Sequence record: SRR20825010_708
Reading direction: 5' to 3' (one strand)
DNA length: 63,826 nt
The notes beneath the pieces are model-generated. The model was not told where the DNA came from and did no database searches. It saw only the letters and a list, made by a program, of their open reading frames with translations. How positions within the stretch are numbered: the stretch's first letter is position 1; each line of letters starts with the position of its first letter. Made by a program: the position numbers and the translations under genes. Of the stretch, positions 1-44,469 are shown one piece after another.

Positions 1-16
1 GGGATTTGTAACCGTT

Positions 17-5653: not shown

Positions 5654-6541
5654 TTAACTCGTTTCCTTTGGAGTACTGAACTCGTTGATGAGCGCCCCCT
5701 TCACCTTCTGGTCACGCTCGATCTGATTGGTCAGATAATCCGTAATCGCGCCTGTTTCAATCTGGCGCCAGGTGGTGCGCTTGGCCGCGACATGGAACAT
5801 ATTGTGAAGGTAAAGATCCCCCTTCGATTCAAGCTTGGTTCTCGGGCATCGGGACTGCTCGATATCCGAGACCGCACGCACCATCATTTGCACTCCGAGG
5901 CGGACCACTTTTTCATATAGGCTGTTAGGGTGATCACCTTCTTCGATGTGTGGCCGGCCCTGGTATACCACATCGCCATCATCAACCCCCTCAGATACAA
6001 AATGCACAGTGGCCCCAACACACTCCGGCTCGCGATTGTGTATCGCCCAGTCTGTCGTAAACAGACCACGGTAGAACTGGGAGAGCCCCCCATGCAGGTT
6101 GAGGACGCCATATTTCGGAATCGCAAGCAGATCCGCCCTTAAAATTGAGGCACCACAAACGGCAATCACATCAGGCCGCCGGTCTCGAATCCAGGCCAGG
6201 TATTCAGGGTTATTAATCGCATTCACCCCTTGGGTGCGGAGTATTTCGACACCCTCTCCCACCTTCAGAACACGTTCCTCTTCGCCAAAGTCCAGTGAAT
6301 TCGCTGGATCGTTGTAGGGCTGGCGCGGCTCAATAAACCGCCCGTCCATAACCTCCAGAACCTTGCGAAAGAACTGACCGGGCGTAGACAGGTACTTTAT
6401 GGCTTTGGTAGCCAGCGAAGAGCGATCTTTCTCCGGTGTCTGATTTTCAACAACAACACCCACTACGTTCAGGGCCTTGGCCAGCTGATTGGCAAAATAG
6501 ATATCCGACTTGTCAGGACTGACAATCACCAGCGTCCTCAT
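5654..6541 (-). CDS. Stand-alone formyltransferase (Fmt/PurN N-terminal-like fold)
   Basis: LNLHGG (N-x-H) and GATVHFVSEGVDDGDVV motifs of 10-formyl-THF-dependent formyltransferases. Confidence 0.85.
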   Translation of the reverse strand: MRTLVIVSPDKSDIYFANQLAKALNVVGVVVENQTPEKDRSSLATKAIKYLSTPGQFFRKVLEVMDGRFIEPRQPYNDPANSLDFGEEERVLKVGEGVEILRTQGVNAINNPEYLAWIRDRRPDVIAVCGASILRADLLAIPKYGVLNLHGGLSQFYRGLFTTDWAIHNREPECVGATVHFVSEGVDDGDVVYQGRPHIEEGDHPNSLYEKVVRLGVQMMVRAVSDIEQSRCPRTKLESKGDLYLHNMFHVAAKRTTWRQIETGAITDYLTNQIERDQKVKGALINEFSTPKETS

Positions 6542-6545
6542 TGAT

Positions 6546-7682
6546 TCACTCTCCTTTCAGTCCGTCGGGACGGCGGCGTTGTTTGGCGCGTTTCCCCAGA
6601 AAACGCTTTAATACGGGTATGAGTCGGTATTCGAGCAGGTACAACAGATGAAGTTTTGGGCTACTTCCAAAAAGCTCAACGGTGCAATATGACTGGTACT
6701 CTGATGTCCAGTTACTCAGATACCAGTAGTCGTCCGCACAGGTGTAGTACTCTTTTACCAACCCGTTCTCAAATAGTCTCTTCAGTGCCGTGTACTCAAG
6801 AACAGAGCCCGGTGAATAGGCTTTATAAGACTCGTCAAAATCAGCACGTATGGGATAAACAATGTCGTCGTACTTGAGGTGAACTTCGAACGCCACCGGG
6901 CGCTCTCCATCGCGAATGATCCAGGCCGACAACAAACCGGTAGGCCCAAACGATTCGATCAGATTGTGCAGAAACCGGCGACTTCGTTCATTCGAGCGCA
7001 AATCATTGCCAACAGTCGCCTTCCAGCTGTTGGCGGAGATCTCTACCAACTCACGGACGGTGTCCTGATCGGGGCTTGAAATAGTCTCTTCATGGATGGA
7101 AAAGGCGGCATTCTTTCCAAACCGGTTCAGTTTATGGTTGAGGCTTTTCTTCAACTTCCTCGGCCGGGACCGGTAAAAGGCCTCCCACGGTTGGTCAATG
7201 CGAATAACAGGCGTGTAAAGGCTGGGTTTTTCACCGACCCGATTGTGCCCGGGTATCGAGCGGTCCTGCAGAAAGCGCTTCAGGTCACCGCTCTGGTGTA
7301 TCTTGAAGAAGAGGCCGATTTCGTCACAACCTACCTTTGTCAGCAACCCCAACACTGCGTCCCTTTCCCGACCAATCACCGCTGAATCAACGACGATGGA
7401 CGAATAGGGGGTGTGACCGTTGGCCGCAAGCTTCAGGAGTGTTACCGGAACTCCCCGATAACGCTCACGAACCCGAAAAAGTGGCGCAACCCCGACCAAG
7501 GCTCCCTCGATATAGACACACCGGAACTCCAACTGCATATTGATCGAAAAGGCGCGCCACCAAGCCTGCAGCCAAGCATGAGTCAATGGTAGAGGAATAG
7601 GGTCCAGAGTCGACAGCAACTCGTCCCATTGTGGTCTGATCTGGTTGAATGCCTCCTCCGTTCTGATAACTCTTAGTTCCAC
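6546..7682 (-). CDS. GNAT family acyltransferase, CelD/BcsL-like
   Basis: WDELL...WLQAWW N-terminus, LVGVAPL, FDESYKAYSPGSVL motif. Confidence 0.8.
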   Translation of the reverse strand: MELRVIRTEEAFNQIRPQWDELLSTLDPIPLPLTHAWLQAWWRAFSINMQLEFRCVYIEGALVGVAPLFRVRERYRGVPVTLLKLAANGHTPYSSIVVDSAVIGRERDAVLGLLTKVGCDEIGLFFKIHQSGDLKRFLQDRSIPGHNRVGEKPSLYTPVIRIDQPWEAFYRSRPRKLKKSLNHKLNRFGKNAAFSIHEETISSPDQDTVRELVEISANSWKATVGNDLRSNERSRRFLHNLIESFGPTGLLSAWIIRDGERPVAFEVHLKYDDIVYPIRADFDESYKAYSPGSVLEYTALKRLFENGLVKEYYTCADDYWYLSNWTSEYQSYCTVELFGSSPKLHLLYLLEYRLIPVLKRFLGKRAKQRRRPDGLKGE

Positions 7683-7696
7683 AGTATTCGTGTTTC

Positions 7697-8554
7697 CTAA
7701 GCGGCTGCAGACAACTTGTGTTTAACCTTGCGAAGCTGGTCCAGCACATCAATGGCGCGCCGTTTCAGCCAGAAATCAAGCAGTGGTTGTTGTAACCAGT
7801 GCCTGACACGGTTCTGCAGCCAAAAGTAGTTGACCGACACGTTGCGACCTTCCGCTTCAATGAAATGCCAGGTGCCGGCGGGAATAAAAAGTGCCTGCCC
7901 TTCTTCCAGCCAGCCGGTAATGCCCTTTGCATTGCCCAATTTCGGGAATGCCTCCAGGTCCAGCTTCTGGCAGTCGATCTTGCTGTCCACCACCCGATTC
8001 TCCAACAATGCCCGCAAACTGAATGGGCTGTATGGATACATGCAATCGCTTTGATCCGGCGCAAAGAGAATGAATCGTTTGCGCCCTTCCAACATCATCA
8101 GAAGGCTGTGGGTTTCGTCATAGTGCAACAGCGATTTATTTTTCCCGGGCCCAATGTACAGATTCGAGACCCGAAAACGGGATTCAGGCACGAACGCCGG
8201 CAACGTGACCGCAACACTGTTTGGCAGGTCCTCGGAAACACCGCGACCTTTCAGCGGCTCAAGCGCATAGCCATTCCCGGTTGTGCGCATCACCTCATCA
8301 AAATCCGCCATGGGGATGCGCTCGAAGCCCAGATAATGGTAGATGCCGTCTTCTGACTGTCGCTGTATCCGAATGGATTTAAGCGATTCTCTGAAAAAAT
8401 CGTAGTTCCAGTCCCGGATGAACGGCAAAGACTCCTCGATGCCACTCAACAACAAAGGCTGACGACGACGGATATAAGGAAGCAATCCGTCCTGTTCAGT
8501 GGGAAAGGGAATGGTTTTTATGGATTCCGGCCCGGAAAGATCAAATAAACTCAT
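7697..8554 (-). CDS. JmjC/cupin-like Fe(II)/2-oxoglutarate oxygenase
   Basis: SLLHYD...GRKRFILF...LFIPAGTWH (H-x-D...H triad), NVSVNYFW. Start moved from 8698 to ATG 8554 (RBS CAGGAA). Confidence 0.85.
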   Translation of the reverse strand: MSLFDLSGPESIKTIPFPTEQDGLLPYIRRRQPLLLSGIEESLPFIRDWNYDFFRESLKSIRIQRQSEDGIYHYLGFERIPMADFDEVMRTTGNGYALEPLKGRGVSEDLPNSVAVTLPAFVPESRFRVSNLYIGPGKNKSLLHYDETHSLLMMLEGRKRFILFAPDQSDCMYPYSPFSLRALLENRVVDSKIDCQKLDLEAFPKLGNAKGITGWLEEGQALFIPAGTWHFIEAEGRNVSVNYFWLQNRVRHWLQQPLLDFWLKRRAIDVLDQLRKVKHKLSAAA

Positions 8555-8731
8555 CGCGACTTCCTGTTTCAACAATCCACAACGCCCCGCATGAATCGCG
8601 CTAGTTAAGGTGGACCCTGCTTCTACTAATTCCCTGATTACAAAATTACCATATTCCATGGGCAATAAAGCTGCAAGCACTACCATGTGCACTGTCAACA
8701 GACTGGTCCAACCTGATCGATTGCGGGAGAA

Positions 8732-9373
8732 CTAACGTCCTACGTGATCAAACCAGGGCTGTGCCCTACTCACTCTCCACCCCTTGAACGCAACACTGAA
8801 CAATCCCAAACCAAGCGTTCGGACACTGATGTAGGTAAATCCGAACCGGAAGCCCGCCTTGCCCAGAGCCTTCCTGGATGCGCCGTTGTGAGTATCAACC
8901 GCCACGAGTGCCAGGGTCGAGGTAGAGCGATGCACGCTCAAGATCCCATCAAGCAACATCTGGAAGTACCCTAGGCCACGACACTCGGGAATGGTAGCGC
9001 AGTCCCAAATGTAGAACGCCCTATCGGGAACGGTCAGATAAAGGTCGTGTAAAATGCCAATGCAGGTGCCCGGCCCAGCTACCCAGCCCCAGGAAACCAG
9101 TTGGTTATCAACATGCATCTGGAAAAGTCGATTACCCTGGCGGGTGCGACGCAGAAACTCCTGATCAGACACCGGCAACCCGGGTTCTGTTCCGTCAGCC
9201 TCAACAATGCGGGCCGGCGCGATAGAGCTTGCATTCCTCGATAACGCCCCATCGACAACGTGCTGCGAGAGAAAGATACCGGACTTTATCTCAATCAAGC
9301 GGAGAATCCATTGCTTCAGAGGTCGTAAACAACGTTTTTTAACGATGTTTGGAAACAAGGTGTCCTTACTCAT
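8732..9373 (-). CDS. GNAT family N-acetyltransferase
   Basis: YIWDCATIPECRGLGYF acetyl-CoA-binding motif A; N-x-ASRKALGKAGF. Confidence 0.75.
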   Translation of the reverse strand: MSKDTLFPNIVKKRCLRPLKQWILRLIEIKSGIFLSQHVVDGALSRNASSIAPARIVEADGTEPGLPVSDQEFLRRTRQGNRLFQMHVDNQLVSWGWVAGPGTCIGILHDLYLTVPDRAFYIWDCATIPECRGLGYFQMLLDGILSVHRSTSTLALVAVDTHNGASRKALGKAGFRFGFTYISVRTLGLGLFSVAFKGWRVSRAQPWFDHVGR

Positions 9374-9582
9374 ACATTTCCACCGGCATCAGGGTTAACT
9401 AGAAACTGAAAGCTGTTTCAAATTCCATTTCAATCGAAAAGAAAGACTGTTATATTTTTTTAATGATGAAGGATAGCAAAGCCTAAAAGCCATCGACATT
9501 TATGTCCAAGGGTTTTAAAAAAAAGCTGCAGCGCCACTTCATTGGATCTTATAGGTACGATTGTCAAACAGGACGTTTTGTC

Positions 9583-12500
9583 ATGACCGCCAGCAGTAGC
9601 CAACAAACCGTCATCGCCCGTTTTATTGAAGTCGCTCAGCACCACCCCGGTCGCACCGCCGTAGCGTGGCGAGACAATCAGACCTGGAAGAAACTCACCT
9701 ATACCGAATTATTCGACAAAGCCCGGAGGATTGCCAGCGAGTTGGCAAGAGCAGGTGTAGAAGAAGGCTCTTCGGTCATACTTCCGTCAGAAAGACACCC
9801 CGACTTATGCGCCAACTTATTGGGTATACTTTTTTGTGGCGCTCATTACGTATTTATTGACGCTAATTACCCAAAAGAACGTCAACATTTCATCACTGAA
9901 GCTGTATCTGCAAAGTTTGGAATTAATGCTCCTGGATCTGATTTACTTAATCACCTTGATATTTCATGGATAAATACCCGTAATTCCCCGCAAAGTAACG
10001 TGGAAATACCGGATATCCCTGAAAACAGCGAGCGGCCAGCCTATGTCATGTTTACCTCCGGCTCGACCGGAGAGCCTAAGGGTGTGGTGGTACCCGACCG
10101 CGCAATACTTCGGCTGGTCACCAGCACCGATTTCATATCATTTTCACCAGAGCAGACGTTCCTTCAGTTATCAGCCCTGAGTTTCGATGCTTCCACGTTG
10201 GAACTCTGGGGCCCCCTGCTCAATGGTGGCACCTGCGTACTACACCCAGAGACCGGCGTACTGACACCCAACTGCATCCGGGACGTTATCCTGGAGCGTG
10301 ATGTCAGCACTCTATGGCTTACTGCCTCGCTGTTTAACACGTTCATCGCCGAATACCCTGACTACCTCAAGCCTGTTAAACAGTTATTGACAGGAGGCGA
10401 AGCGCTTTCAGTGCCACATGTGAGGAAAGCACTCGAACACCTGCCCAACACTGCCCTGTTCAACGGCTATGGGCCCACCGAGAATACAACGTTTACCACC
10501 GTATTCCCGATACCCAGGCCGCTGCCGGAAGATATCAAGCGAATTCCTATTGGGTTTCCCATTCCCGGTACCCAATGTGCTCTTGTCGATTCAGAGCTGA
10601 ACATTCTAGAGGGTCCAGATCAGACCGGTGAACTCATTGCCTTCGGCGATGGCCTCGCACTGGGTTACCTCAACAGGCCGGAATTGACCGCTGAGAAGTT
10701 CATTCAGGTGAAAGCCAAAGACGGCCGGTCGCGAACCGGCTACAGGACAGGCGATCTGGCGCAACTCAACGACGATGGTAGCTACGATTATTTAGGCAGA
10801 ATAGATAAGCAGGTTAAAATCGACGGGCACCGCATCGAGCCAGGTGAAATCGAGTACCAATTGAACAACCTTGAGTTCGTCACAGAGGCTCGGGTCATTG
10901 TTCGAATTGGACCACAAGGACAGAAACGACTCGCCGCCTACCTGGTGTCGGAATCGGGCTTCAGCACACAATCCGTCCGCCAGGCGTTGGCTGAGGTTGT
11001 CCCGGCCTACATGATTCCACACTTTATTGTCCAGGTGTCCGAATTGCCGAAGAACAAGAACGGCAAACTGGATGAAGCCCGCCTTCCGGACCCATACGCT
11101 ACGGCGCCAAAAGACGCCCCACAGGCCTCCAGAGTCACCAAGGACCGCATCCAGGAAAGCTGGAACACCATACTGAACCGCCCGGTCGAAGATACCGACA
11201 ACTTCATGGATGCCGGCGGCACCTCACTAGAAGCCCTGAAACTGGCAACCCTGCTGGAACGCACCTTTGAGGTTGAGCTCAGTGCCACGTTTGTGTTCGA
11301 GCACCCGACGATCCAGCAGCAAGCGAATTTCTTTGCAACCCGTTCCAATGCTGACGACACTGAAGCATCGGCGCGGCGCGGCGACAGGAACAACAACGAG
11401 TTTGCCATCATTGGCATGGCCTGCCGCTTTCCCGGCGCCAACAATCTGGATGAATACTGGCAGAACCTACTTGCGGGCAAGGAAACCGTCAGTTTCTTTA
11501 CCGATGACGAACTGAGCCCCGACGTCAGTGCAGAAGAACGTTCCAATCCCGCGTATGTAAAAGCCAAGGGTATTGTCGAGGGTTACGACCGCTTTGACGC
11601 CAAGTTCTTTGGTATCTCACCGATAGAAGCCCGGGTGATGGATCCGCAGCAGCGTATTCTCCTGGAACTGAGCTGGCACGCCCTTGAGGACGCCGGCATT
11701 CCTCCGGGCGATGCCCAATACCGCACCGGCGTGTTCGCTGGTATGAACTGGGCTCGTTATTACCAGCAGTATGTTCTGCCAAATAAGGAGATTATTGATA
11801 GCTACGGTGTTCTCAACTGTGGCCTCGCCAACGAGCCCGACCTGCTGAGCACCCGCATCTCCTATAAGTTGAACCTGAAGGGCCCAAGCATCAATGTCTT
11901 TACGGCGTGTTCCACGGGACTCGTCGCAGTGGCACAGGCCTGTGAAGCGATCGACAACGGCCAATGTGAGCAAGCCATCGCCGCAGGTGTGTCCATCTCA
12001 ACGCCAGTGAAGCGCGGGTACGCCTACCAGGAAGGCAGCATGCTCTCGAAAGACGGCCATTGCAGGCCTTTCGACCAGGACGCCACGGGAACCACGTTCA
12101 ACGACGGTGCCGGCGCCATCGTCCTGAAACGTCGAGACCTGGCGGAACGGGATGGCGACACTATCTACGCCGTCATCAAAGGCTATGCAGTAAATAACGA
12201 CGGCGAACAGAAGGCCAGCTTCACCGCACCCAGTGTGGCCGGCCAAGTGGCTGTTTATAAGGATGCCCTTGCCCGCGCTGCCATCGAACCTTCCTCCGTG
12301 GGTTTCATAGAAACCCACGGCACTGCGACGCCCCTGGGCGACCCCATTGAAGTGTTGTCACTGAGGCGCTGTTATTCCTCAGAGAATACCCGGGAGAAAA
12401 CCTGCGCGATCGGTTCTGTTAAATCCAACATCGGGCACGCCATCCATGCCGCCGGCCTGGCTAGCCTGATTAAATCCACTCTGGCCGTCCGTGACAACAA

Positions 12501-19200: not shown

Positions 19201-20774
19201 GGTCCGACGTACTCAATTCCAAGTCCCGGATTGTACGCGAGGACAACTTCTTCAGCCTGGGCGGGCACTCATTGCTCGCGCTGCAGGCCATCCGCAGGAT
19301 AGAGAGCCAGACCGGCATCAAACTGACCCCGGAAGACATCGTCGGGCTCAGCCTGAGTGAAATCGCCGAGAAAGTCTCCCACAGCACGCCGGCCTCCGCC
19401 GGGCACGAAGACTCACCGGCGGATCTGCCCACGGCCCAGCGGCGCTTGCTGAGCCATGAACAGACCCGGCTGCTGCTGCGGCAGCTGTCCTACCCGGACA
19501 ACGTGTGTAACAACCTGCCCGCGTCCTGGTTCCTCGAAGGCAACCTTGATATTGATACGTTCACCCGTAGCCTGATCAAGGTTTTCGAGCGCCAGACCGC
19601 GCTGCGAACGGTCATTACCCAGGTGGATAGCCGCTACCAGCAAGGCATCCTGCCAGTGAAGCAGGTCCCCGTACTCGATGTTGTGGACCTAACCGGCGAG
19701 GATAACCCCGAGCAAACGGCGCTGAAACGCTCACGGGACCTGGCGTTCAAACCCTTCAAGGTGCTCGACCGGCCGCTGTTCCGCTCCACGCTGTTTGTGC
19801 TGGGCGATGCCCGCTACCACTACGTGTTCGTGCCACATCAACTGGTCTTCGATGGCTGGTCGTTTGATATCTTCCTCAAGGAACTGGAGGACGCCTATCT
19901 GGTACAAAGCAATACGGAACGGGAAAAAGCCAACAAACTGGCGTTCGAGTTCCGGGATTACGCTGAGTGGTCAATTGAAAAAGGTGCGTCGACAGAGGAT
20001 GTCGATTACCACAGGGCCAAGATTGCCGGCGTCCTGGAATCCGAGGCCCGCGAGAACGAGAACTACGGCAAACCCAACCAATGTGCCCGGGAGACCCTGA
20101 ACTTCCCGGAAGCAAGCCTGGCGATGGTGGAAAAGGTGGGTAATGAACTCGGGCTCAAACTTCACGAGATCCTGTTCTGCCTGTTCGCGGAGACCATCTC
20201 CCGGTCGCACAAAGACAACCGTATTGTGCTTGGCGTGCCCACGTCCGGCCGTCAACGCGCCGACGTGATCAACCTGATTGGTAGCTTTGTGACCACCATT
20301 CCCTGTTTGCTTCAGGCGCCATCGTCCAGCTTCCGGGAGCGCATTGCCAGCCTGAGCGACCAACTCAGGGAAACACTGGACCATCAGACGGTGACCTACG
20401 CTGATATCGTCCGTAACACGCCTGCCGAGAGGGAGCTGTTTCCGGAGTTTGTCCAGGCCAGCTTTGCTTTTCAGGACATCCGCAACCGGCCAACCTCCAT
20501 TGCCGACCTGGCGCTCAGGCAACTGGACCTGCCCCGGCTGAACACCGAATACCCGGTGGAGTACTGGGTGCGGATCCAGCCTGGTGGTTTCATTGGCGTG
20601 TTTGACTACAACGAGGCTTCTGTTGATTCAGAGACGGTACAGTCGCTCAAGGAGACCTTTGCCGGACTTGTTGCGGACCTTGAAAGACTTATCAATGAGG
20701 TGCCCTCAGAACCAAGCCAGTCAAAAACACCGGTCGCCAAGAAGCCGTTCTGGAGGAAGCTGTTTCAGTCATGA
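16269..20774 (+). CDS. NRPS: C-A-T-C (terminal C with variant active site), no thioesterase
   Basis: C1 HHIVCDGWS; A: YIIYTSGSTGKPKG, NMYGPTE, YATGD; T: LGGHSL; C2 HQLVFDGWS. ATGA overlap with the upstream gene. Confidence 0.95.
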   Translation: MSSASFNPFAGGELLRVAPATGPQREIIASAQLSDVANTAFNEAVSVKLSGNLDVNLLRQCFDDLIAKHDILRATFSRNGTEICLHDTSTFQLEVEDLNGGTPSEQEAAIRDLWKNIAISPMNLEEGPLLFAWLMKLDSNTHELVLAAHHIVCDGWSIGLMLTELAESYGSQRAQSDDSGADISFFDYAEMVDSKEISNIDNDYWIDRFAEVPPNLDLPLDYPRPHFRTFEATRLDYRIDPELAKRLPKAAAAMKVSMVNMVLASYFVLLHRLTSSDDIVVGLPVAGQATQNRLKQVGHMVHLLPIRAQLTPDTRFSELCKQVKSEVLNASEHSNFTFGKLIEAINVDRTRVPLINTIFNIDQPLESIQFGDIEGKVRTVPRAAENFEMFLNILPSSDSLTIEATYSTALFSEATIVSWLEALERILATATADVEIAVGSIALAEQEPNVVQRANDTQRDMPHGTVIDALQHHVSATPDAFACAFGDRSWTYQQLDERSNAVAASLANQGIAAGNTVAVCVERSDAALAAIVGILKLGAIYLPLDPDFPEARLQYMIEDSEASAVIVDSQTPAAIAGVNLLKVDINEAIEPASAEASPVPPVRIDPEQTAYIIYTSGSTGKPKGVLVPHRALINFLESMSDKPGCTANDRLLAVTTFSFDISFLELLLPLTQGATTVIADKDSVKDGEKLRRLILDHQISIMQATPATWRMLLDTDWRQDGVRMKGLCGGEPLPQDLVRDLLGCLDELWNMYGPTETTVWSTCHPLRLTDKLISIGKPIHNTQVHILDRERNPVPLSCPGELYIGGLGLATGYHNRPDLTSEKYIDHPLHGRLYATGDLAKWTPDGNLQHLGRMDDQVKVRGYRIELGDIESALAACADIKSACAYVWELAPGDARIVGCVVSESGDVPNVVSIRKELRKLLPAYMIPQYIIAIDSIPLSPSGKMDRRRLPKPELRESSILKASALANQTEEMIADVWSDVLNSKSRIVREDNFFSLGGHSLLALQAIRRIESQTGIKLTPEDIVGLSLSEIAEKVSHSTPASAGHEDSPADLPTAQRRLLSHEQTRLLLRQLSYPDNVCNNLPASWFLEGNLDIDTFTRSLIKVFERQTALRTVITQVDSRYQQGILPVKQVPVLDVVDLTGEDNPEQTALKRSRDLAFKPFKVLDRPLFRSTLFVLGDARYHYVFVPHQLVFDGWSFDIFLKELEDAYLVQSNTEREKANKLAFEFRDYAEWSIEKGASTEDVDYHRAKIAGVLESEARENENYGKPNQCARETLNFPEASLAMVEKVGNELGLKLHEILFCLFAETISRSHKDNRIVLGVPTSGRQRADVINLIGSFVTTIPCLLQAPSSSFRERIASLSDQLRETLDHQTVTYADIVRNTPAERELFPEFVQASFAFQDIRNRPTSIADLALRQLDLPRLNTEYPVEYWVRIQPGGFIGVFDYNEASVDSETVQSLKETFAGLVADLERLINEVPSEPSQSKTPVAKKPFWRKLFQS

Positions 20775-20790
20775 CGGGAAGTAACGGGCA

Positions 20791-21534
20791 ATGATAGAAC
20801 CTTTTTTCTTTGATAACAGCCGCCTGTTCGGCTGCTATTCGTCTGCGACGGACCCCAATGCAGAAAAAGTCGTGGTTGTGTGCCCACCGCTTTTTGACGA
20901 GTACCGGCGCACTTACCGGGCCTTGTCGGAATTGTCCGTGGCCATTTCCGAGCGCGGGAATCATGCGTTTCGCTTCGACTACTACGGAACAGCAGAATCC
21001 CAGGGACTGTTGTCGGAGGCAACCATAGAAGTCTGGTTGTCCGATATCCAAAAAGCGATTGATGAAGCCATCGCTGTCTCCGGTGCCAACCATGTGGTGT
21101 TATTGGGCGTGCGGTTTGGTGCAACACTGGCGGCACAAATTAACCATGCATCCGTAAAGGAATTCCTTTTCTGGGATCCAGTGCTGTCCGGAGAACGCTA
21201 CGTTGAGTGGCTGAATGAGATCGATGCCATCCTGCGCAAGCGGCATCAGTCAGCGGCACGCGAGAACAATGTTCCCTTCGAAAACATAGAGTACAGGAAC
21301 TTCGACCTTCCCTCAGGGCTGGTAACCGGCATACGCGAACTGGCTATTCCCGAGAGTACCCTGAACAACCCCGACCTGTGCTTCACCGTCTCAACCGATC
21401 CGGAATTCTGCAAAAGCTCAGGACTAAGCAACTGCGCCTATCCCGGCCTCAGCTACGATTGGCCGTATTACCACGACGGCGTAATCACCCAGAAACCGGT
21501 ACTCGAAGCATTACTGGACAGGGTATTCGCATGA
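20791..21534 (+). CDS. Alpha/beta hydrolase-fold protein resembling exosortase A system-associated hydrolase 2
   Basis: RFDYYGTAES, elbow LLGVRFGATLA (G-x-R-x-G, no Ser), LFWDPV. Confidence 0.75.
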   Translation: MIEPFFFDNSRLFGCYSSATDPNAEKVVVVCPPLFDEYRRTYRALSELSVAISERGNHAFRFDYYGTAESQGLLSEATIEVWLSDIQKAIDEAIAVSGANHVVLLGVRFGATLAAQINHASVKEFLFWDPVLSGERYVEWLNEIDAILRKRHQSAARENNVPFENIEYRNFDLPSGLVTGIRELAIPESTLNNPDLCFTVSTDPEFCKSSGLSNCAYPGLSYDWPYYHDGVITQKPVLEALLDRVFA

Positions 21535-22379
21535 TCAAGGAACGGATATTCACCTATGGGGAACACCAGCACGGCATTGGCGTTCTCTCCGAGCCTGAAG
21601 ACACCTTCAACAGCCCCATTGTGGTGCTGCTGAACGCCGGCCTGTCCCACCGGGCGGAGCCCTATCGGCTGAATGTACTGCTCGGCCGCCAACTCGCGGA
21701 ACTGGGTTATATCGCGTTGCGGGTGGACCTGTCTGGCAAGGGGGACTCCCCAGCCCACGAAACCATGACCAACCGGGAATCAGTGGCCCTCGACTGGTCA
21801 TTCATGAAGAAATCCCTCGAAAAGCTCTATGGCTCCAGGCCCCTGCTGATCTTCGGTTTGTGTTCAGGTGCCGACAACGGCATCAAACTCTGCGCCCAGG
21901 ACCCATCCATCAAGGGGCTTATCCTTCTGGACCCGGTGTCCCGGCAGGACGAAGGTTTCGCGAAGCGAGAACTGCTCCGGAAGCTGACAAACCCTAACAA
22001 GTGGTTGAATATCCATAAAATTGTCTCCCGCAGGCTGAAACAGAACACCAGCGGTGAACACTCGCTGCTTAGCTCCCCCATGGACTTGCGGGATGAGCCC
22101 AATGAAGACGATATGGACCGTTGCTTCGAGAGCCTGGTGGAAAAAGATGGCCGGGTGTTCGCCGTGTTTACCAGCCAAACCCTCTACCACTACAACAAGC
22201 TTGGCCAGTTCGCCTCTGCCATGGACATCAAAGGCCTTGAACCCATTATCGAGGAAGTCTTCTGGCCCAATGCCAAGCACATCTTCTCCATCGAAGTGCA
22301 CCGACAACGCCTGATCGGCACCATTACAGACTGGGCCAATAAACAACTGGATCACTTGAAGACCCTGAAACCGGAATGA
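21531..22379 (+). CDS. Alpha/beta hydrolase-fold protein resembling exosortase A system-associated hydrolase 1
   Basis: LRVDLSGKGDS, elbow FGLCSGAD, late His (AKHIF). True start at ATG 21531 overlapping the upstream stop (ATGA). Confidence 0.75.
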   Translation: MIKERIFTYGEHQHGIGVLSEPEDTFNSPIVVLLNAGLSHRAEPYRLNVLLGRQLAELGYIALRVDLSGKGDSPAHETMTNRESVALDWSFMKKSLEKLYGSRPLLIFGLCSGADNGIKLCAQDPSIKGLILLDPVSRQDEGFAKRELLRKLTNPNKWLNIHKIVSRRLKQNTSGEHSLLSSPMDLRDEPNEDDMDRCFESLVEKDGRVFAVFTSQTLYHYNKLGQFASAMDIKGLEPIIEEVFWPNAKHIFSIEVHRQRLIGTITDWANKQLDHLKTLKPE

Positions 22380-24190
22380 AATTCGTCCTGATCACCAGTT
22401 CGCTGATCCTGATCGCCATCCTTGCCGTGCTCGGCTATCGCGCAGACGACGTAAAGCTGTGGCTGGGCGATGTCACCATGCCCATGCGCGAAAACATGCA
22501 ACGGGCCCGCAATGTCATGGTTCCCATGCGCGACGGTGTGAAGCTTGCAACAGACGTATACCGGCCGCTTGGAAACAAACGCCATCCGGTTATATACATT
22601 CGCACCACCTATGGCGGCATCGAATTCAGCACCGTCCGGCACTTCGTCAGGCACAACTACGCCGTGATCGTACAACATGTCCGTGGCCGATTTTACTCAG
22701 AGGGTCGTTACAAGAGCCCCTACTTGACTGCAAAGCAAGACGGCTACGACACCATCGAATGGTTGGTTGAACAGCCCTGGTCAACCGGCAAAATCGGAAC
22801 ATTTGGATGCTCCTACCTGGGTGAAAGCCAGATCATACTTGCCGCGGCCAACCACCCGAATCACATCGCCATGATTGCGTCCGGCGCCGGCGGTGCCGCC
22901 GGCAAGGTCAAGGACACGTTTGGCTATTTTGGCGTGTTCGAAAACGGCGTGTTGAACCTGGCTTCTTCATTAGGGTGGTTCACCGCTGAGGGCGCAAAGG
23001 ATTTCAAGGTAACGCCACGCCCCGACGATTACGAAGAGCGAATGCGTACCTATATGACCCACCTGCCCGTTTCCGGGATTGCAGACAAGATCGTTCCCTA
23101 CGAAACTGGCTTCGATGACATTATTCGCCACCCCTTAACGGACAACTGGTGGGACGAAGAAGGCTACACCCACCCGGACGACGAGTTCTCGGTGGCCACA
23201 CTGCATATCAACGACTGGTTCGACCAAACGGCCCATAACACCTTCAAGCTGGCCGAACACATGGCAGAGAACGCCCGCCATCCCCGAGCGAAGTCCCAGC
23301 CTGTACTGATCGCACCAGGCGTGCATTGCGGCGCCGGAAAACTGAAGCCCGGGGAAGTCACCATTGGTGAGATGTCGTTTGATTACGCCGGCAAAGATTT
23401 CCGGCAAACCTACATCGACTGGTTTGATTATTGGCTGAAAGACGAACCAACGGACCTGCCACCCGATTTCGAGTATTACTCGATCCATTCCGGGGAATGG
23501 AATACCTCTGAGCAGTGGCCGCCTGCCGATGCCAGCGACCAACGCCACTATTTCATGCCGGGCAATCGCCTGGTAAAGGAGGCGGACCTAAACAGCGCCC
23601 CTGAGCAAAGTGGCCCGTTGTATGAACAGTTTACCTACGACCCTTTAGATCCCGTCCCCACCCTCGGCGGGCCAATCTGCTGTACTTACAGGCCGGAAGA
23701 TAAACCCGGGCCGCTCGACCAGAGGCCACTGAAATCACGTCAGGATGTGTTGGTTCACGCAAGTGACCCACTGGAGCAGGACATGGAATTGGTTGGCAAT
23801 GCCAACGTTGTCCTCTACGTGTCGACCAACGCCCAGGATACGGATTTTACCGTCAAGATGGTCGACCAGTACCCGGATGGCAGGGCCTTTAACCTCCAGG
23901 ATGGCGTCGTCCGCCTGCGTTACCGGAACGGTATCGACAACCCAAGCCCCGTCGAACCGGGCCGCATCTATCGGGTTGAACTGGAAATGAGGCCCATTGC
24001 CTATCGCTTCCGGAAAGGACACCGGCTCGAGTTCCACATTTCAAGCAGCAACTTTCCACGCCTGGCGCGGAACCTCAACACCGGAAAAGACGAATACAGC
24101 GATTCGGATACGTTTGTCGCCACCAACAGGGTTTACTTTGGTGGAGACACCCCGTCCTCCGTGGCATTGCCCATAAAAACATCGGAATAG
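22376..24190 (+). CDS. CocE/NonD (peptidase S15-like) serine hydrolase/acyltransferase with N-terminal signal or anchor
   Basis: VPMRDGVKLATDVYRP, RGRFYSEG, GCSYLG nucleophile, C-terminal FRKGHRL...SSSNFPR; hydrophobic N-terminus. Confidence 0.9.
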   Translation: MKFVLITSSLILIAILAVLGYRADDVKLWLGDVTMPMRENMQRARNVMVPMRDGVKLATDVYRPLGNKRHPVIYIRTTYGGIEFSTVRHFVRHNYAVIVQHVRGRFYSEGRYKSPYLTAKQDGYDTIEWLVEQPWSTGKIGTFGCSYLGESQIILAAANHPNHIAMIASGAGGAAGKVKDTFGYFGVFENGVLNLASSLGWFTAEGAKDFKVTPRPDDYEERMRTYMTHLPVSGIADKIVPYETGFDDIIRHPLTDNWWDEEGYTHPDDEFSVATLHINDWFDQTAHNTFKLAEHMAENARHPRAKSQPVLIAPGVHCGAGKLKPGEVTIGEMSFDYAGKDFRQTYIDWFDYWLKDEPTDLPPDFEYYSIHSGEWNTSEQWPPADASDQRHYFMPGNRLVKEADLNSAPEQSGPLYEQFTYDPLDPVPTLGGPICCTYRPEDKPGPLDQRPLKSRQDVLVHASDPLEQDMELVGNANVVLYVSTNAQDTDFTVKMVDQYPDGRAFNLQDGVVRLRYRNGIDNPSPVEPGRIYRVELEMRPIAYRFRKGHRLEFHISSSNFPRLARNLNTGKDEYSDSDTFVATNRVYFGGDTPSSVALPIKTSE

Positions 24191-24227
24191 ACTCACTGGC
24201 GCAATCCGTTGCGTAAAGGAGACAACA

Positions 24228-25049
24228 GTGAATAAAGCCTTGAAGAACCGGATCATCAATAGCATCGAACTGCTGCCCTATGGTCACGACCTCTACCTCC
24301 ACATGGCCAGGAAGCGGCTGGGCATTACCTACCGGGGCATTTACGATTCCTTCCACGAAGCCCAGCAGCAGGCCATCAGCCAGTTGGCCAACGAGTACGA
24401 CGTCATCAACCAAAACAAGGGGGAACATCTGGAGCAGGAGCTGCCAGTACTGGACAAACGGGTGCTGGATATCGATTACCCGTTGTTATTCTGGCTCTCC
24501 CGGCTGATGCAGCCTTCCCAACGGCTACTGGAACTGGGCGGCAGTATCGGCCAGGGGTTCTACAGTTTCGAAAATTTCTTCTCGTACCCCGACGGACTCC
24601 AATGGGTGATCGCAGAGTTGCCGGCGGCCGTCGAAGCCGGGCGTAAAATCGCCAGCCAGAAAGACGAAATACGGCTCGCATTCATCGACAGTAACGACAT
24701 GGGCGAGGAAGACGCCGCAGACATCTTCATGACGGCAGGCACACTGCAATACATGGACACCAACATTGCCGACACCGTGAGCCAGCTCCAGCGGCTTCCC
24801 AAGCATGTGTTGGTCCACAACCTGCCCGCCCACCCGACGGAAGACTTCTGGACACTGCAATACCTGGAAGTCTGCGAAGTGCCCTATCACATCAGCTCGC
24901 AAGCCAACCTGGTGAGTGACATGGAAAAGGCAGGGTACCGATTGGTGGACCGGTGGAAAAACCCGCGCCGGATAGAAATCCCCTACCATCTGGAGAAAAC
25001 CGTAGAGCACTACCACGGGTTTTATTTCACGGTTAATGATCCGAAGTGA
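24228..25049 (+). CDS. Putative SAM-dependent methyltransferase (LIC12133-like family)
   Basis: DYPLLFWL, LELGGSIG (motif I variant), AGTLQY. Confidence 0.7.
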   Translation: MNKALKNRIINSIELLPYGHDLYLHMARKRLGITYRGIYDSFHEAQQQAISQLANEYDVINQNKGEHLEQELPVLDKRVLDIDYPLLFWLSRLMQPSQRLLELGGSIGQGFYSFENFFSYPDGLQWVIAELPAAVEAGRKIASQKDEIRLAFIDSNDMGEEDAADIFMTAGTLQYMDTNIADTVSQLQRLPKHVLVHNLPAHPTEDFWTLQYLEVCEVPYHISSQANLVSDMEKAGYRLVDRWKNPRRIEIPYHLEKTVEHYHGFYFTVNDPK

Positions 25050-25140
25050 GTAACCCTTCGGTCCGCGTTCCGTCCAATTGACGGCTTTCTGCGGTCTACC
25101 TATAATTTTTTTACGCCATCCCGAGTAGGAGCAGGCGAGC

Positions 25141-26109
25141 ATGGATACAGCTGAACAGATAGCCGTTCCCGAAACGGCAAACCAAGTGAAAAACGATCAG
25201 CCTGCAGCACCCACGGGCAGGTTCAAGGTCTGGGTTGAAGACGAAACGGACTTTTCCCTGAACAGCATCTCGCTCCTTGGGCACAACTTCTATGAACACC
25301 CTCTGCTCCAGCTTGATCAACTGGAAGCATTGGCTCACCGCCTGCTGCCCTCAAAACAATGCCGCTTTATCGCCCCTGGTGCCAAGCAGAGTTCCAAGTT
25401 CATTCATCACGCCGAAAGCCCGGACGGGCGCGATCTTTCCGACGTCTTTGCAAACATCTCGGAACCCGGCTCCTGGGTGGCTTTGTACAATGCAGAAACC
25501 GACCCGCAGTATGCCGGTCTCGTCAACGAGGCTATCTCATCCGTCGAGCACCTGGTTGATCGGGAGCAGCCTGGCATTTTCAGCCCGCAGGCGTTCATTT
25601 TCATCTCCGCGCCTCCGTCAGTAACGCCCTTTCACATCGACCGGGAGAACAACTTTTGGCTGCAGATACACGGCCGTAAAATCATGAACGTCTGGGATTC
25701 CCACGACAGAGGCATCATCCCCGCCTATACCGTGGAAAGCTTCATCATCGACGGCTCCCTTCACGACGTCATCCTGAAGGACGAGTTCATGGACGCTCGC
25801 CACGAGTGGGACCTTGGCCCCGGAGAAGGTGTCTATTTCCCCAGCACCTCGCCCCACTCAACACGTACCGAGAATACCTGGGTAACCCCGGATAACGGCG
25901 TAACGGTTTCTATTGGCATTGTCTTCTATACCAAAACCACCCGCAGGCAGGCCTATATCCATTCGCTGAATCGACTGTTACGGCGGTTTGGTGTGTCTCC
26001 GAGGTTTCCTGGTGAGTCGCCTTTTGATGGCATTAAATTCGGTCTGGGGAGATTGCTCGTGGGTTTGAAGAAGCGGCTCAGGGGATACAAGCCGCCCACT
26101 GGTTTCTAG
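25141..26109 (+). CDS. JmjC/cupin-like oxygenase
   Basis: TPFHIDRENNFWLQIHGRK...YFPSTSPH (H-x-D...H). Confidence 0.8.
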   Translation: MDTAEQIAVPETANQVKNDQPAAPTGRFKVWVEDETDFSLNSISLLGHNFYEHPLLQLDQLEALAHRLLPSKQCRFIAPGAKQSSKFIHHAESPDGRDLSDVFANISEPGSWVALYNAETDPQYAGLVNEAISSVEHLVDREQPGIFSPQAFIFISAPPSVTPFHIDRENNFWLQIHGRKIMNVWDSHDRGIIPAYTVESFIIDGSLHDVILKDEFMDARHEWDLGPGEGVYFPSTSPHSTRTENTWVTPDNGVTVSIGIVFYTKTTRRQAYIHSLNRLLRRFGVSPRFPGESPFDGIKFGLGRLLVGLKKRLRGYKPPTGF

Positions 26110-26283
26110 GTACAAACCTCCTCCGGCAATGCGCTCGGTCTGGACCAAGGCTTATCTATACTATCCCTTACTCTTCCGACTTATAGGACACTTATACGTT
26201 AAGTGCATATACCTCGATTTAACATTCAAAAACGATTGAAGTAAGCATTAGAAAATACCGTAACCACCAACAATACTTGTAAT

Positions 26284-26308
26284 TGTCCGAACACAAAATT
26301 TTCGGACA
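26284..26308. promoter_or_regulatory. Inverted repeat TGTCCGAA-N9-TTCGGACA, candidate transcription-factor operator
   Basis: Perfect 8-bp palindromic arms in an AT-rich intergenic region, with an extra TTTCGGAC half-site at 26316-26323. Confidence 0.45.
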
Positions 26309-26450
26309 TAGGTTCTTTCGGACGACTCACCCAGTAAAACGAAGATACAAAACAAAAAGAATCCGCGTTCAAAGACATTCGTCGGCGTCTCAGTACACGC
26401 TTGAACCTAGAAGTCCGTATCTTTAAACCCAGTCGCCAGAGGACGCTCCC

Positions 26451-28001: not shown

Positions 28002-28008
28002 GGCGTGA

Positions 28009-44467: not shown

Positions 44468-44469
44468 CA

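Follow-up and report, generated by a model that had tools for sequence, protein, structure and literature searches.

An NRPS-PKS assembly line and its accompanying genes form a swappable insert in the exosortase A (XrtA) surface-polysaccharide locus of Marinobacter. In the stretch of DNA that we analysed (63,826 nucleotides from record SRR20825010_708; hereafter the window), this block occupies positions 5654–26109, between xrtA and the XrtA-type exopolysaccharide (EPS) genes. New here are the polymorphism of the slot, the hydr2-hydr1 gene pair with which the lines end, and the recurrence of such lines among EPS/XrtA genes beyond Marinobacter. We tentatively favour a reading in which the block is an optional module of the Marinobacter XrtA/PEP-CTERM EPS system, whose product would decorate the exopolysaccharide by way of hydr2/hydr1.

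The 47 likely genes of the window, chosen from 119 ORFs of 100 aa or longer, were scanned with Pfam and NCBIfam profiles (Table 1). The fused xrtA-epsI gene is the left boundary of the slot. The right boundary, outside the insert, is a Golvesin_C/TSP3 gene that stays beside xrtA in loci with an empty slot. EPS genes extend to ~57 kb of the window and include five XrtA-system equivalogs over cut-off (TIGR03006, 03007, 03013, 03019 and 03027); FemAB-family genes and sugar deacetylases are usual components of the XrtA locus in the NCBIfam scan. The original prediction of export through Wzx and Wza only was correct: the 47 ORFs contain Wzx-type (Polysacc_synt) and Wza-type (Poly_export) genes and no ABC_tran, MFS or RND exporter. 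It had also described the line as lacking a thioesterase (TE). This holds in that none of the 47 ORFs has a thioesterase (PF00975) or reductase domain, but the description overlooked the linked Cys-His protein hydr1 and its partner hydr2.

Table 1. Features of the slot and its boundaries (bit scores, with profile cut-offs where given).
Feature	Position	Strand	Basis
PrsR, PEP-CTERM-box sigma-54 response regulator, 5' end cut by window	2..1390	+	TIGR02915 669.6, cut-off 502.6
PrsT, XrtA/PEP-CTERM TPR lipoprotein	1443..4139	+	TIGR02917 433.6, cut-off 312.2
XrtA-EpsI (exosortase A fused to EpsI)	4149..5648	+	TIGR03109 229.7, cut-off 208; TIGR02914 89, cut-off 43
Stand-alone formyltransferase, N-terminal domain type (Formyl_trans_N)	5654..6541	-	PF00551 62
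FemAB-like GNAT (Acetyltransf_6)	6546..7682	-	PF13480 83.7
JmjC/Cupin_8 oxygenase-like protein, upstream copy	7697..8698	-	PF13621 98.5
Small GNAT (Acetyltransf_1), weak call	8732..9373	-	PF00583 21.3, cut-off 20.7
P1, hybrid NRPS-PKS, A(Val-like)-T-KS-AT(malonyl-type)-ACP-AMT	9502..16272	+	Pfam domain order
P2 module, C(HHIVCDG)-A(Gly-like)-T	16269..19385	+	Pfam and motifs
C*, terminal condensation-like domain with HQxxxDG	19386..20774	+	Motif alignment
hydr2, alpha/beta-fold, Arg at nucleophile position	20791..21534	+	Best match TIGR03101, 80, cut-off 203
hydr1, alpha/beta hydrolase, Cys nucleophile and conserved His	21531..22379	+	Best match TIGR03100, 66, cut-off 168
CocE/NonD-family serine hydrolase	22376..24190	+	TIGR00976 331.9, cut-off 66.3
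TIGR04325-family methyltransferase	24228..25049	+	229.5, cut-off 80
JmjC-like oxygenase (JmjC_2), downstream copy, right end of insert	25141..26109	+	PF08007 26, cut-off 22
Golvesin_C/TSP3 lipoprotein	26451..28001	+	PF25275 150.7

The line consists of two proteins (3,757 aa in total), and the order proposed for it, A-T-KS-AT-ACP-AMT // C-A-T-C* between xrtA and the EPS genes, was borne out by Pfam/NCBIfam domains and by motifs. P1 contains AMP-binding, PP-binding, KS, AT, PP-binding and Aminotran_3 domains in sequence, and P2 (16269–20774) contains Condensation (two stretches), AMP-binding and PP-binding domains. The adenylation domain of P1 scored 345 bits against TIGR01733 (cut-off 317) and has a Val-like signature (DALWLGGTF), while that of P2 is Gly-like (DILQLGMVW). 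The KS of P1 carries TACSTG, HGTATPLGD and NIGH, its AT carries GHSIG and HAFH, and its ACP carries DSL. HHxxxDGW is found in the C domain of P2 in 67/68 family members. In C* the active-site motif of the window reads HQLVFDG, with Gln in place of the second His, opposite which it aligns in the C domain of bacitracin synthase; HQxxxDGWS is present in 63 of the 68 family members and in all 10 rows of alignment A1. C* ends in KKPFWRKLFQS, a conserved tail rich in basic and aromatic residues, and W[RK][RK][LM]F occurs in 67/68. By coordinates, 4-base overlaps (ATGA) join P1 to P2, hydr2 to hydr1, and hydr1 to the CocE/NonD gene.

Thirty genomes had an XrtA of 60% identity or more, and the slot was readable in 28 of them; it held the window's line (type 1) in 4, a second, divergent NRPS-PKS (type 2) in 15, an NRPS only in 2, and was empty in 7, counts that are not independent events since the genomes are of related species. 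An NRPS(-PKS) line was thus present in the xrtA-adjacent slot in 21/28 readable orthologous Marinobacter-family loci, where it started 0.2–4 kb from xrtA; in one (G213), line and xrtA are 227 bases apart on the same strand. In the seven related genomes with empty slots, the Golvesin/TSP3 gene follows xrtA after 0.1–3.4 kb, with none of the block genes between them, and the EPS genes come next. The type-1 block is all-or-nothing and is carried by 5/263 family genomes. Type-2 lines finish in a T domain, without C*. Wherever downstream DNA was read, hydr2-hydr1 was terminal in both type-2 (7/7) and NRPS-only (2/2) loci.

Both proteins of this pair are Hydrolase_4-like in Pfam and are distantly related to hydrolase 2 and hydrolase 1 of XrtA systems. 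The start codon of hydr1 is most likely at 21531, judging by comparison with locus L001. The G-x-R-x-G elbow of hydr2 was invariant in 15/15 sequences, canonical XrtA ones included, and an invariant His is absent; with Arg at the nucleophile position, hydr2 is probably non-catalytic. In hydr1, G-L-C and His250 were invariant in 15/15 sequences, including two canonical XrtA hydr1 proteins, which makes it a candidate release or transfer enzyme. Its predicted model (pLDDT 84) has a generic alpha/beta-hydrolase fold of the esterase/lipase kind, and its matches include the curacin TE domain. The two proteins are predicted to bind each other: their complex scored 0.91, compared with 0.60 for the best control (the mark for such scores was attained by 51/78 solved complexes versus 2/108 mismatched pairs), with at least 92% contact agreement between runs and partner pLDDT of at least 89. 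Fusions of hydr2 to hydr1 made up 32 of the 33 long representatives among the best 150 hydr1 relatives. The pair probably hands on the product of the line, possibly to a sugar polymer.

The two groups of genes flanking the line were also as originally described: a divergent GNAT-JmjC-GNAT-formyltransferase operon upstream on the minus strand (5654–9373; Pfam, one GNAT weak), and hydrolases, a methyltransferase and a JmjC downstream in the direction of the line (plus strand, 20791–26109). The top NCBIfam matches of the formyltransferase were formyltransferase and ArnA-type models, every one under cut-off; its gene accompanies type-1 lines (3/4 genomes) and type-2 lines and is missing from empty slots. 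Neither GNAT matched an NCBIfam model at E 0.01, the small one not even the exosortase-linked N-acyl amino acid synthase type. The CocE/NonD protein has a GCSYLG motif and an N-terminal hydrophobic stretch (anchor or signal). It accompanies the type-1 lines of Marinobacter, is found in L066, L067, L068 and L070, and is missing from G409, G299, G576 and G289. Most type-1 lines come with homologues of the methyltransferase and of the downstream JmjC; type-2 lines are followed by a JmjC homologue of 26% identity.

The core of P1, P2, hydr2 and hydr1 was intact in 9/9 further genomes, and among the 17 metagenome loci whose downstream sequence was long enough, hydr2 was found in 17/17 and hydr2-hydr1 in 16/17. 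The EPS/XrtA setting recurs outside Marinobacter, though not in all lineages. G409 has, on one strand, XrtA, deacetylase, Wzx, Wzy, GT4, Acyl_transf_3, P1, P2, hydr2, hydr1, JmjC and methyltransferase. In G299 EPS genes surround a type-1 line whose contig also carries XrtA, and in L066 the genes after the line are GT4, GNAT and Wzx. Acyl_transf_3 adjoins the line in G409, G299 and G576. The type-1 line of G576, however, is megabases from XrtA, with a type II thioesterase 8.5 kb upstream, and that of G289 is on a different contig from XrtA; the visible flanks of the lines in these two and in L067, L065/L073 and L071 contain no XrtA or EPS genes. An MFS gene adjoins the line in L070, and in G478, which has a line, XrtA was not found in the genome. 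In an order sample, XrtA-like genes were present in 6/7 line-positive versus 130/394 other genomes (Fisher p = 0.007, relatedness uncorrected). The proposed tie to EPS/XrtA genes stands for the 21/28 Marinobacter-family loci, G409, G299 and L066, and is not seen in the visible flanks of G576, G289, L067, L065/L073 and L071. Homologous clusters do not mostly lack EPS genes, and the linkage of the line to the XrtA/EPS locus is real rather than a chance placement. This linkage was observed directly, as were the architecture and motifs of the line and the polymorphism of its slot.

How does the block compare with known systems? In two canonical XrtA cassettes, a free-standing carrier protein (83/84 aa), hydr2 and hydr1 follow one another on one strand; an acyl-CoA ligase (TIGR03098) and a PLP decarboxylase (TIGR03099) are close by. 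The T(-C*)-hydr2-hydr1 order seen here is the same, as are the G-x-C-x-G/A elbow and conserved His of hydr1, the G-x-R-x-G elbow of hydr2 and the position inside an XrtA/EPS locus. In contrast, the place of the lone ligase and carrier is taken by a 3,757-aa NRPS-PKS that has KS, AT, AMT and C domains, the window's line has no decarboxylase, and its hydrolases are only 21–31% identical to the canonical ones and below the curated cut-offs. Hybrid modules that form beta-amino units are known from MycA/ItuA (iturin family) and McyE (microcystin). These share the arrangement of KS-AT-ACP-AMT followed by a C domain, by which a beta-keto thioester would be transaminated ahead of peptide bond formation. 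They differ in that the starter here is an amino-acid A domain (TIGR01733 over cut-off, Asp at the amine-binding position) rather than a fatty-acyl ligase or polyketide-chain starter, and the window's line has two modules only and no TE.

Carrier-protein-dependent modification of surface polymers is carried out by DltABCD, which D-alanylates teichoic acids, and by AlmEFG, which adds glycine to Vibrio lipid A. The proposed likeness is that the aminoacyl unit supplied by an adenylating enzyme and a carrier goes to a surface polymer and not into a free product; in related type-1 loci, moreover, the membrane acyltransferase Acyl_transf_3 adjoins P1. However, the Marinobacter window lacks membrane acyltransferases of the AT3 and MBOAT types as well as an LPLAT transferase, the unit would be a peptide-polyketide, and transfer would fall to a Cys hydrolase whose partner is dead. 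The PEP-CTERM-linked synthases of N-acyl amino acids (Craig et al. 2011, as cited in an excerpt of PMC7293339) likewise place a small-molecule enzyme recurrently beside exosortase/EPS genes, but they are single GNAT-fold enzymes yielding free N-acyl amino acids, and the window's GNATs lack NCBIfam matches. In the Bep EPS cluster of Burkholderia cenocepacia, Bcam1333 (Acyl_transf_3) adjoins the TIGR03100-like Bcam1334, a hydr1-type protein beside a membrane acyltransferase as in G409, G299 and G576. Its authors guessed at a glycan-trimming role, and the excerpted account reports no NRPS/PKS, hydr2 or exosortase there (PMC3584217).

We infer a scheme that covers substrates, release chemistry and acceptor. 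P1 would load a Val-like amino acid and extend it with malonate, its AMT would convert the beta-keto group to an amine by transamination, and P2 would join the chain to Gly, giving a short, amine-rich acyl-dipeptide bound as a thioester. The JmjC, methyltransferase, formyltransferase and GNAT enzymes may tailor it further. Most likely the chain would then move onto the hydr1 cysteine through the hydr2/hydr1 pair, which most likely would deliver it to an acceptor of the polysaccharide pathway, the leading candidate being a free sugar amine, or a hydroxyl of the lipid-linked repeat unit. Since no signal peptides were found in the line enzymes of the window, CocE/NonD excepted, any acceptor must be accessible from the cytoplasm. 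Counted against the scheme are hydr1 and hydr2 scores under the TIGR03100/TIGR03101 curated cut-offs and the lack of a sigma-54 site 5' of P1, sites that the PEP-CTERM genes of the window do carry. The missing membrane acyltransferase and the lines found away from XrtA/EPS elsewhere also count against EPS decoration.

A less likely, though serious, alternative is that the product is a small molecule free to diffuse, namely a short diamino-acyl-glycine that may carry formyl, methyl or hydroxyl groups, with hydr1/hydr2 acting as a trans thioesterase and the EPS siting reflecting only co-regulation or co-inheritance, an explanation already put forward for the N-acyl amino acid synthases of PEP-CTERM loci. 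The NRPS-PKS architecture is ordinary, the hydr1 fold is that of generic esterases, curacin TE included, and the lines outside EPS genes, the MFS gene of L070 and the type II thioesterase near the G576 line would all fit, as would the precedent of small-molecule synthases linked to PEP-CTERM loci (excerpt of PMC7293339). Yet the window lacks an exporter, one xrtA-adjacent slot takes three line types with hydr2/hydr1 in every one read, EPS embedding recurs in the unrelated contexts of G409, G299 and L066, and a Cys nucleophile with a dead partner is odd for a plain hydrolytic TE.

It is improbable that the amine-rich product, alone or on a lipid or sugar, serves as the nucleophile to which exosortase A attaches PEP-CTERM proteins once it has cut off their sorting signal, in the manner of sortase and its Fem-built cross-bridge. 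Proximity to xrtA would suit this idea, as would the primary amine introduced by the AMT domain, a Val amine that may remain free, the FemAB-family genes and sugar deacetylases standard in the locus, and the amino-acid-type adenylating enzyme and amine-forming decarboxylase of the canonical cassette. But the type-1 line of G576 is megabases away from XrtA, that of G289 sits on a different contig and that of G478 is in a genome where XrtA was not found, the neighbouring formyltransferase and GNATs would cap amines, and seven XrtA loci manage without a line, so its product cannot be a general exosortase acceptor. A hitch-hiking genomic island with no functional connection to the locus is very improbable: the block is there whole or not at all, type 1 is rare and P1 lacks a sigma-54 site, but three line types share the slot in 21/28 loci, the hydr2/hydr1 pair is common to canonical XrtA cassettes, EPS embedding is repeated in other orders, and in a genome of 4 Mb the chance that a gene falls no more than 30 kb from xrtA is ~1.5%.

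The earlier interpretation, that the product is transferred onto a glycan, is thus partly supported, as the line is truly tied to the EPS locus and the transfer is plausible. If decoration by way of hydr2/hydr1 is true, the Marinobacter exopolysaccharide would bear a peptide-polyketide decoration that varies between strains.

The window proved to be Marinobacter DNA. P2, the second of the two assembly-line proteins, shares 98% identity with a Marinobacter sp. DS40M6 NRPS, and P1, the first, shares 91% with its counterpart in M. algicola DG893 (locus L001), where the gene order is the same. Exosortase A systems are found widely among environmental bacteria. Pfam and NCBIfam searches with 47 ORFs, chosen among 119 of at least 100 aa, identified positions 1 to 57 kb as a genuine exosortase A locus. 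The XrtA-EpsI protein exceeded the NCBIfam cut-offs (TIGR03109, 229.7 against 208; TIGR02914, 89 against 43), as did PrsR (TIGR02915, 670 against 503) and PrsT (TIGR02917, 434 against 312). A gene for the PrsK sensor kinase would be expected upstream of PrsR, past the left edge of the window. On the right side, a deacetylase (TIGR03006), a chain-length determinant (TIGR03007), a priming transferase (TIGR03013), a FemAB-family protein (TIGR03019) and an export protein (TIGR03027) were also above their cut-offs.

The same searches bore out the predicted architecture of the block between xrtA and the first exopolysaccharide (EPS) genes. A divergent operon on the minus strand encodes a formyltransferase, an Acetyltransf_6 GNAT, a Cupin_8/JmjC protein and a weak GNAT. 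P1 (A-T-KS-AT-ACP-AMT) and P2 (C-A-T-C*, where C* is a terminal condensation-like domain) are followed by two alpha/beta-fold ORFs, hydr2 and hydr1, then by a CocE/NonD hydrolase, a TIGR04325 methyltransferase and a second JmjC protein. By ORF coordinates, P1/P2, hydr2/hydr1 and hydr1/CocE each overlap by four bases. The CocE/NonD protein has a hydrophobic anchor or signal at its N-terminus and, given this, could act on an exported product. The window had also been said to lack a small-molecule exporter, and no ABC, MFS or RND domain was found in the 47 ORFs scanned.

Features of the block, its surroundings and related loci (window positions unless a contig is named)
Feature	Position	Strand	Remark
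Block under study	5654-26109		
GNAT	6546-7682		
GNAT	8732-9373		
P1	9502-16272		
P2	16269-20774		
P2 C-terminal tail	20742-20774		
hydr2	20791-21534		
hydr1	21531-22379		
Sigma-70-like promoter match	25078-25106	+	11/12
Membrane GT2 and deacetylase genes	29194-31489		PgaC/IcaA-like; PgaB-like
PEP-CTERM domain ORF	36834-37454		Pfam/NCBIfam
Sigma-54-type site	37530-37545	-	
Adenylate-forming enzyme	38967-40352	-	PaaK/F390-synthetase-like
Two ATP-grasp ligases	43292-45645	+	
PEP-CTERM domain ORF	57159-57842		Pfam/NCBIfam
Sigma-54-type site	57894-57909	-	
PEP-CTERM domain ORF	57992-58720		Pfam/NCBIfam
Sigma-54-type site	58772-58787	-	
PrpD	58896-60380	-	Methylcitrate-pathway type
Sigma-54-type site	60585-60600	+	
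PEP-CTERM domain ORF	60680-61399		Pfam/NCBIfam
PrpF	63220-63825	-	Methylcitrate-pathway type
Type-2 line of genome G176	L077:10819-20000 + L078:1-7514		
hydr1 of genome G227	L040:765-1603		
Remnant of downstream JmjC, genome G213	L038:12829-12921		31 aa
Two hydrolase pairs and NRPS, metagenome contig	L071:6692-14904		

The strongest new evidence in this analysis is that the site after xrtA is polymorphic. XrtA orthologues at least 60% identical to that of the window were found in 30 of 263 family genomes, and the DNA beside xrtA was read where contigs allowed. The slot between xrtA and a Golvesin/TSP3 lipoprotein gene held a line of the P1+P2 kind (type 1) in 4 genomes, a second, divergent NRPS-PKS (type 2) in 15, and an NRPS without a PKS part in 2; it was empty in 7 and unreadable in 2. 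Empty slots contain no block genes: the Golvesin/TSP3 gene lies 0.1-3.4 kb past xrtA, followed by DegT and GT2 genes. The limits originally predicted for the block coincide exactly with those of the exchangeable insert. The formyltransferase/GNAT/JmjC operon accompanies filled slots and is absent from empty ones.

Type 2, which occupies the same slot in 14 family genomes besides G176, consists in G176 of an Sfp-type phosphopantetheinyl transferase, P1', P2', hydr2' (elbow GLRLG), hydr1' (GLCSG) and a JmjC protein. P1' has the domain order of P1 and is 39-41% identical to it, and P2' is C-A-T-C-A-T, ending in a T domain without C*. In the two NRPS-only genomes (G072, L088/L110; G214, L081/L111), xrtA is followed by an ATP-grasp-like gene and an NRPS without KS, AT or AMT domains. 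A hydr2-hydr1 pair stands at the end of all seven type-2 and both NRPS-only loci whose downstream DNA was read, the NRPS-only pairs being 83-86% identical to the type-2 pair. At two loci of a more distant XrtA lineage within the family (46-47% identical; L106 of G079 and L107 of G148), an NRPS-like gene adjoins a FemAB-family gene inside the EPS locus, and tblastn found neither hydr2 nor hydr1 there.

Beyond the slot, C* orthologues occurred in 5 of the 263 family genomes (62-94% identity), in 6 more of the 401 genomes sampled from the order (37-41%) and at 21 metagenome loci. P1, P2, hydr2 and hydr1 are kept together wherever the DNA extends far enough. The methyltransferase and the downstream JmjC gene are mostly kept with type-1 lines, CocE/NonD is present in some lineages, and the divergent operon accompanies type-1 lines in Marinobacter only and is absent in G213. 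G213 retains a short remnant of the downstream JmjC gene, and in G227 tblastn recovered hydr1 in two pieces that lie in different frames, perhaps because of a frameshift or an assembly error.

Motifs were read directly from the sequences of P1 and P2. The KS of P1 has its Cys and two His, and the AT carries GHSIG and HAFH, the latter presumably malonyl-type. The carrier Ser is kept in both carrier domains of P1 (the ACP motif is DSL) and in the T domain of P2. The AMT domain belongs to the class III aminotransferases (162.8 bits), its PLP lysine would be that of GKVVGGG, and the first C domain of P2 reads HHIVCDG. The catalytic motifs of the KS-AT-ACP-AMT module and of the C domain that follows it are intact. 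We take this module to resemble those of MycA and McyE, with the difference that P1 starts from an amino acid and not from a fatty-acyl or polyketide chain: it loads through an amino-acid A domain (TIGR01733, 345 against 317), with FDAS placing Asp at the amine-binding position.

The A-domain pockets were read by hand at the GrsA positions, and the columns were compared with a linear gramicidin synthase alignment. They gave DALWLGGTF for P1 and DILQLGMVW for P2, which we take to be Val-type and Gly-type; the Val/Gly assignment first proposed agrees with this. LgrA, the best PDB match of the P1 A domain, was discarded as evidence for Gly because its score is the sum of equal Val- and Gly-module matches. 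From the two A-domain types and the module order, the thioester expected before tailoring would therefore be a (3,4-diamino-5-methylhexanoyl)-glycyl unit.

How would such a thioester leave P2? No terminal thioesterase (TE; PF00975) or reductase domain was found in the 47 ORFs scanned. C* is a true condensation-fold domain, with a bacitracin synthase C domain as its closest solved relative. The HHxxxDG motif with the second catalytic His, the criterion for catalytic release by a terminal C domain, was not found in C*: its motif is HQLVFDG, and the Gln aligns with the second, catalytic His of the solved domain. This substitution is conserved, with HQ kept in all ten rows of the C* alignment and HQxxxDGWS present in 63 of 68 P2-family proteins (P0002-P0069). 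The other five comprise one HL variant, three longer proteins in which the motif is absent from the last 480 residues, and P0063 (2,591 aa). In 67 of the 68, the N-terminal C domain has HHxxxDGW. The same number carry W[RK][RK][LM]F at the extreme C-terminus, and the type-2 P2' ends in the similar FKRLF or FRRLF. The hydrolase pair may dock on this tail.

The closest known system to the block is the XrtA-associated ligase/carrier/decarboxylase/hydrolase 1/2 cassette, which is named but uncharacterised. The block resembles an expanded version of it, but its hydrolases fail the curated family cut-offs (hydr2 against TIGR03101, 80.4 for a cut-off of 202.75; hydr1 against TIGR03100, 66.0 for 168.45), although each model was the sole NCBIfam match of its protein. 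Canonical hydr2, scoring above the TIGR03101 cut-off, lies 18-36 kb from xrtA in four of five strong-XrtA genomes. In two canonical loci (L054, L055) a carrier protein (83/84 aa, FDSM motif), hydr2 and hydr1 follow one another on one strand, and near the pair are a TIGR03098 ligase, which also matches the amino-acid adenylation model at 260 bits, and a TIGR03099 decarboxylase. The order T(-C*), hydr2, hydr1 in the window and across related loci is the same as this canonical order.

The two systems also share their elbow pattern. For each hydrolase, 13 line-associated and two canonical sequences were aligned. In hydr1, a G-L-C-x-G/A nucleophile elbow and a C-terminal His were invariant (15/15); in hydr2, the elbow is G-x-R-x-G, with an invariant Arg at the nucleophile position (15/15) and no invariant His. 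On this pattern, hydr1 is a cysteine enzyme and hydr2 is probably its non-catalytic partner. The predicted model of hydr1 (pLDDT 84) has a generic alpha/beta-hydrolase fold, and a fold search with it found no specific solved relative, all matches being generic alpha/beta hydrolases at TM about 0.55. The predicted complex of hydr1 and hydr2 scored 0.91 against 0.60 for the best control; 51 of 78 solved complexes attained this mark, as did 2 of 108 mismatched pairs. Runs agreed in at least 92% of contacts, with partner pLDDT of at least 89, and the modelling supports binding of the two proteins to each other.

The pair extends well beyond these loci. A hydr1 profile retrieved 5,699 representatives at E 1e-10 and 1,248 at E 1e-30. 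Among the best 150 hydr1 relatives, 33 representatives (P0139-P0270) have 480 aa or more, and 32 of these were single-chain hydr2-hydr1 fusions, the N-terminal half having the Arg elbow and the C-terminal half the Cys elbow; most carry both. The 1,248 representatives, the natural fusions and the position of the pair after both free-standing carriers and full NRPS-PKS lines show the pair to be a terminal unit of carrier-protein pathways in general. The description of the line as "TE-less" is therefore right in that it has no TE domain and misleading otherwise, because a dedicated two-protein unit stands where a TE would. On the L071 metagenome contig, the type-1 pair is followed by a convergent second Hydrolase_4 pair and then an NRPS whose loading module comprises a formyltransferase, an A domain with an inserted luciferase-like monooxygenase, and T.

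These observations point to a carrier-protein pathway whose product passes to the hydr2/hydr1 unit. Our preferred reading, which we hold tentatively and with a little less than even confidence, is that the hydr1 cysteine would then transfer this product to an amine or hydroxyl group on a sugar of the lipid-linked repeat unit, giving a strain-variable decoration of the EPS. We favour it because the line recurs in a surface-polysaccharide locus with many enzymes for making or exposing sugar amines, namely a DegT aminotransferase, FemAB-family transferases, ATP-grasp ligases and three polysaccharide deacetylases, one of the cytoplasmic XrtA-system type. Outside Marinobacter, G409 has XrtA, a deacetylase, Wzx, Wzy, GT4, Acyl_transf_3, P1, P2, hydr2, hydr1, JmjC and a methyltransferase on one strand. 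In G299, EPS genes flank the line on both sides and XrtA is on the same contig. At L066, the line is followed by a hexapeptide acyltransferase, GT4, GNAT and Wzx. A membrane transferase that would hand the unit from carrier to polymer, as in Dlt/Alm-type envelope decoration, is absent from the window; an Acyl_transf_3 gene adjoins P1 in G409 and G299 (in G299 immediately upstream of the line) and lies inside the G576 cluster, and where it adjoins, the pair may feed that membrane acyltransferase instead. According to PMC3584217, a TIGR03100-like gene is paired with an Acyl_transf_3 gene in a published EPS cluster.

Among the other genes of the locus, the PaaK/F390-synthetase-like enzyme and the two ATP-grasp ligases, which lie among the EPS genes, are further candidates for acyl or aminoacyl attachment to the glycan. 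The membrane GT2 and PgaB-like deacetylase genes, divergent and beside the DegT gene, form a possible second, synthase-type amino-sugar polymer module and are conserved also in empty-slot loci. PrpD and PrpF are interleaved with PEP-CTERM genes (for exosortase substrates) at the right end. The GNATs of the block gave no NCBIfam match at E 0.01, and the idea that they are PEP-CTERM-linked N-acyl amino acid synthases was set aside on this result.

Release of a free metabolite by hydr1 is the most serious alternative, one that we consider unlikely while giving it real weight. Several lineages have no glycan genes adjacent to the line, which counts against glycan transfer: none was found in the visible flanks of L067, L065/L073 or L071. 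In G289 the line is next to a PMT_2/ArnT-like glycosyltransferase and then cobalamin genes, with XrtA on a different contig, and the contigs of G278 and G478 are too short for the surroundings to be read. An MFS gene downstream at L070, where a giant GT2/GT1 protein lies upstream, and a type II thioesterase 8.5 kb upstream of the line in G576 count in the same direction; G576 also has a Wzx-like neighbour, and its XrtA-like genes lie no closer than 1 Mb. That the line is a mere hitch-hiker in the locus is very improbable. XrtA-like genes (TIGR03109, E up to 1e-40) are present in 136 of the 401 order genomes and in 6 of 7 line-positive ones (Fisher p = 0.007, uncorrected for relatedness).

Regulation also bears on transfer to the glycan. 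Sigma-54-type matches to a -24/-12 consensus across the window were at chance level (38 against 35.5 expected). Four, with one or two mismatches, lie about 50-80 nt upstream of four PEP-CTERM protein genes, which would fit control of these genes by PrsR. Sigma-54 control of P1 found no support, as 9373-9502 holds no match with up to two mismatches; this difference from the PEP-CTERM genes counts against glycan transfer. A promoter and terminator scan of 8600-28500 gave counts at chance level; a strong sigma-70-like match lies in the 91 nt that precede the downstream JmjC gene, in a region where the total of such matches is at chance.

Two further readings involve the exosortase directly. To our knowledge, neither its attachment partner for its substrates nor the role of the associated ligase, carrier, decarboxylase and hydrolase 1/2 genes is established. 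We think it doubtful that the line product is itself an amine acceptor for the exosortase. As a long shot, the diamine-tipped peptide-polyketide would be a handle fixed by hydr2/hydr1 via its Gly carboxyl to the lipid-linked EPS repeat unit, with its free amine serving as the exosortase A nucleophile, so that PEP-CTERM proteins would be covalently joined to the polysaccharide.

Among the papers searched, none dealt with an NRPS or PKS line at an exosortase locus, and nothing was found on a Marinobacter exosortase with a polyketide synthase, on M. algicola NRPS/antiSMASH, on an exosortase-linked acyl-CoA ligase/decarboxylase (PEP-CTERM) or on 8Z0Q. A link between small-molecule enzymes and PEP-CTERM systems has one precedent that we found, reportedly that of Craig et al. 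2011. On this link, PMC5484115, PMC7293339, PMC8776678 and PMC6602434 cite Craig et al. 2011 only.

The data point to an undescribed release or transfer mechanism consisting of a Cys hydrolase and a dead partner, with docking perhaps via the WR(K/R)LF tail, and genome-mining tools keyed to TE domains would miss such a unit. Because one Marinobacter locus exists in natural empty, type-1 and type-2 versions, in a harmless and culturable organism, one can test directly where the product goes and what the hydrolase pair does. If the handle reading were true, Gram-negative bacteria would have their own equivalent of the Fem cross-bridge and sortase system, and the strain-variable handles (type 1, type 2 or none) would act like serotypes.
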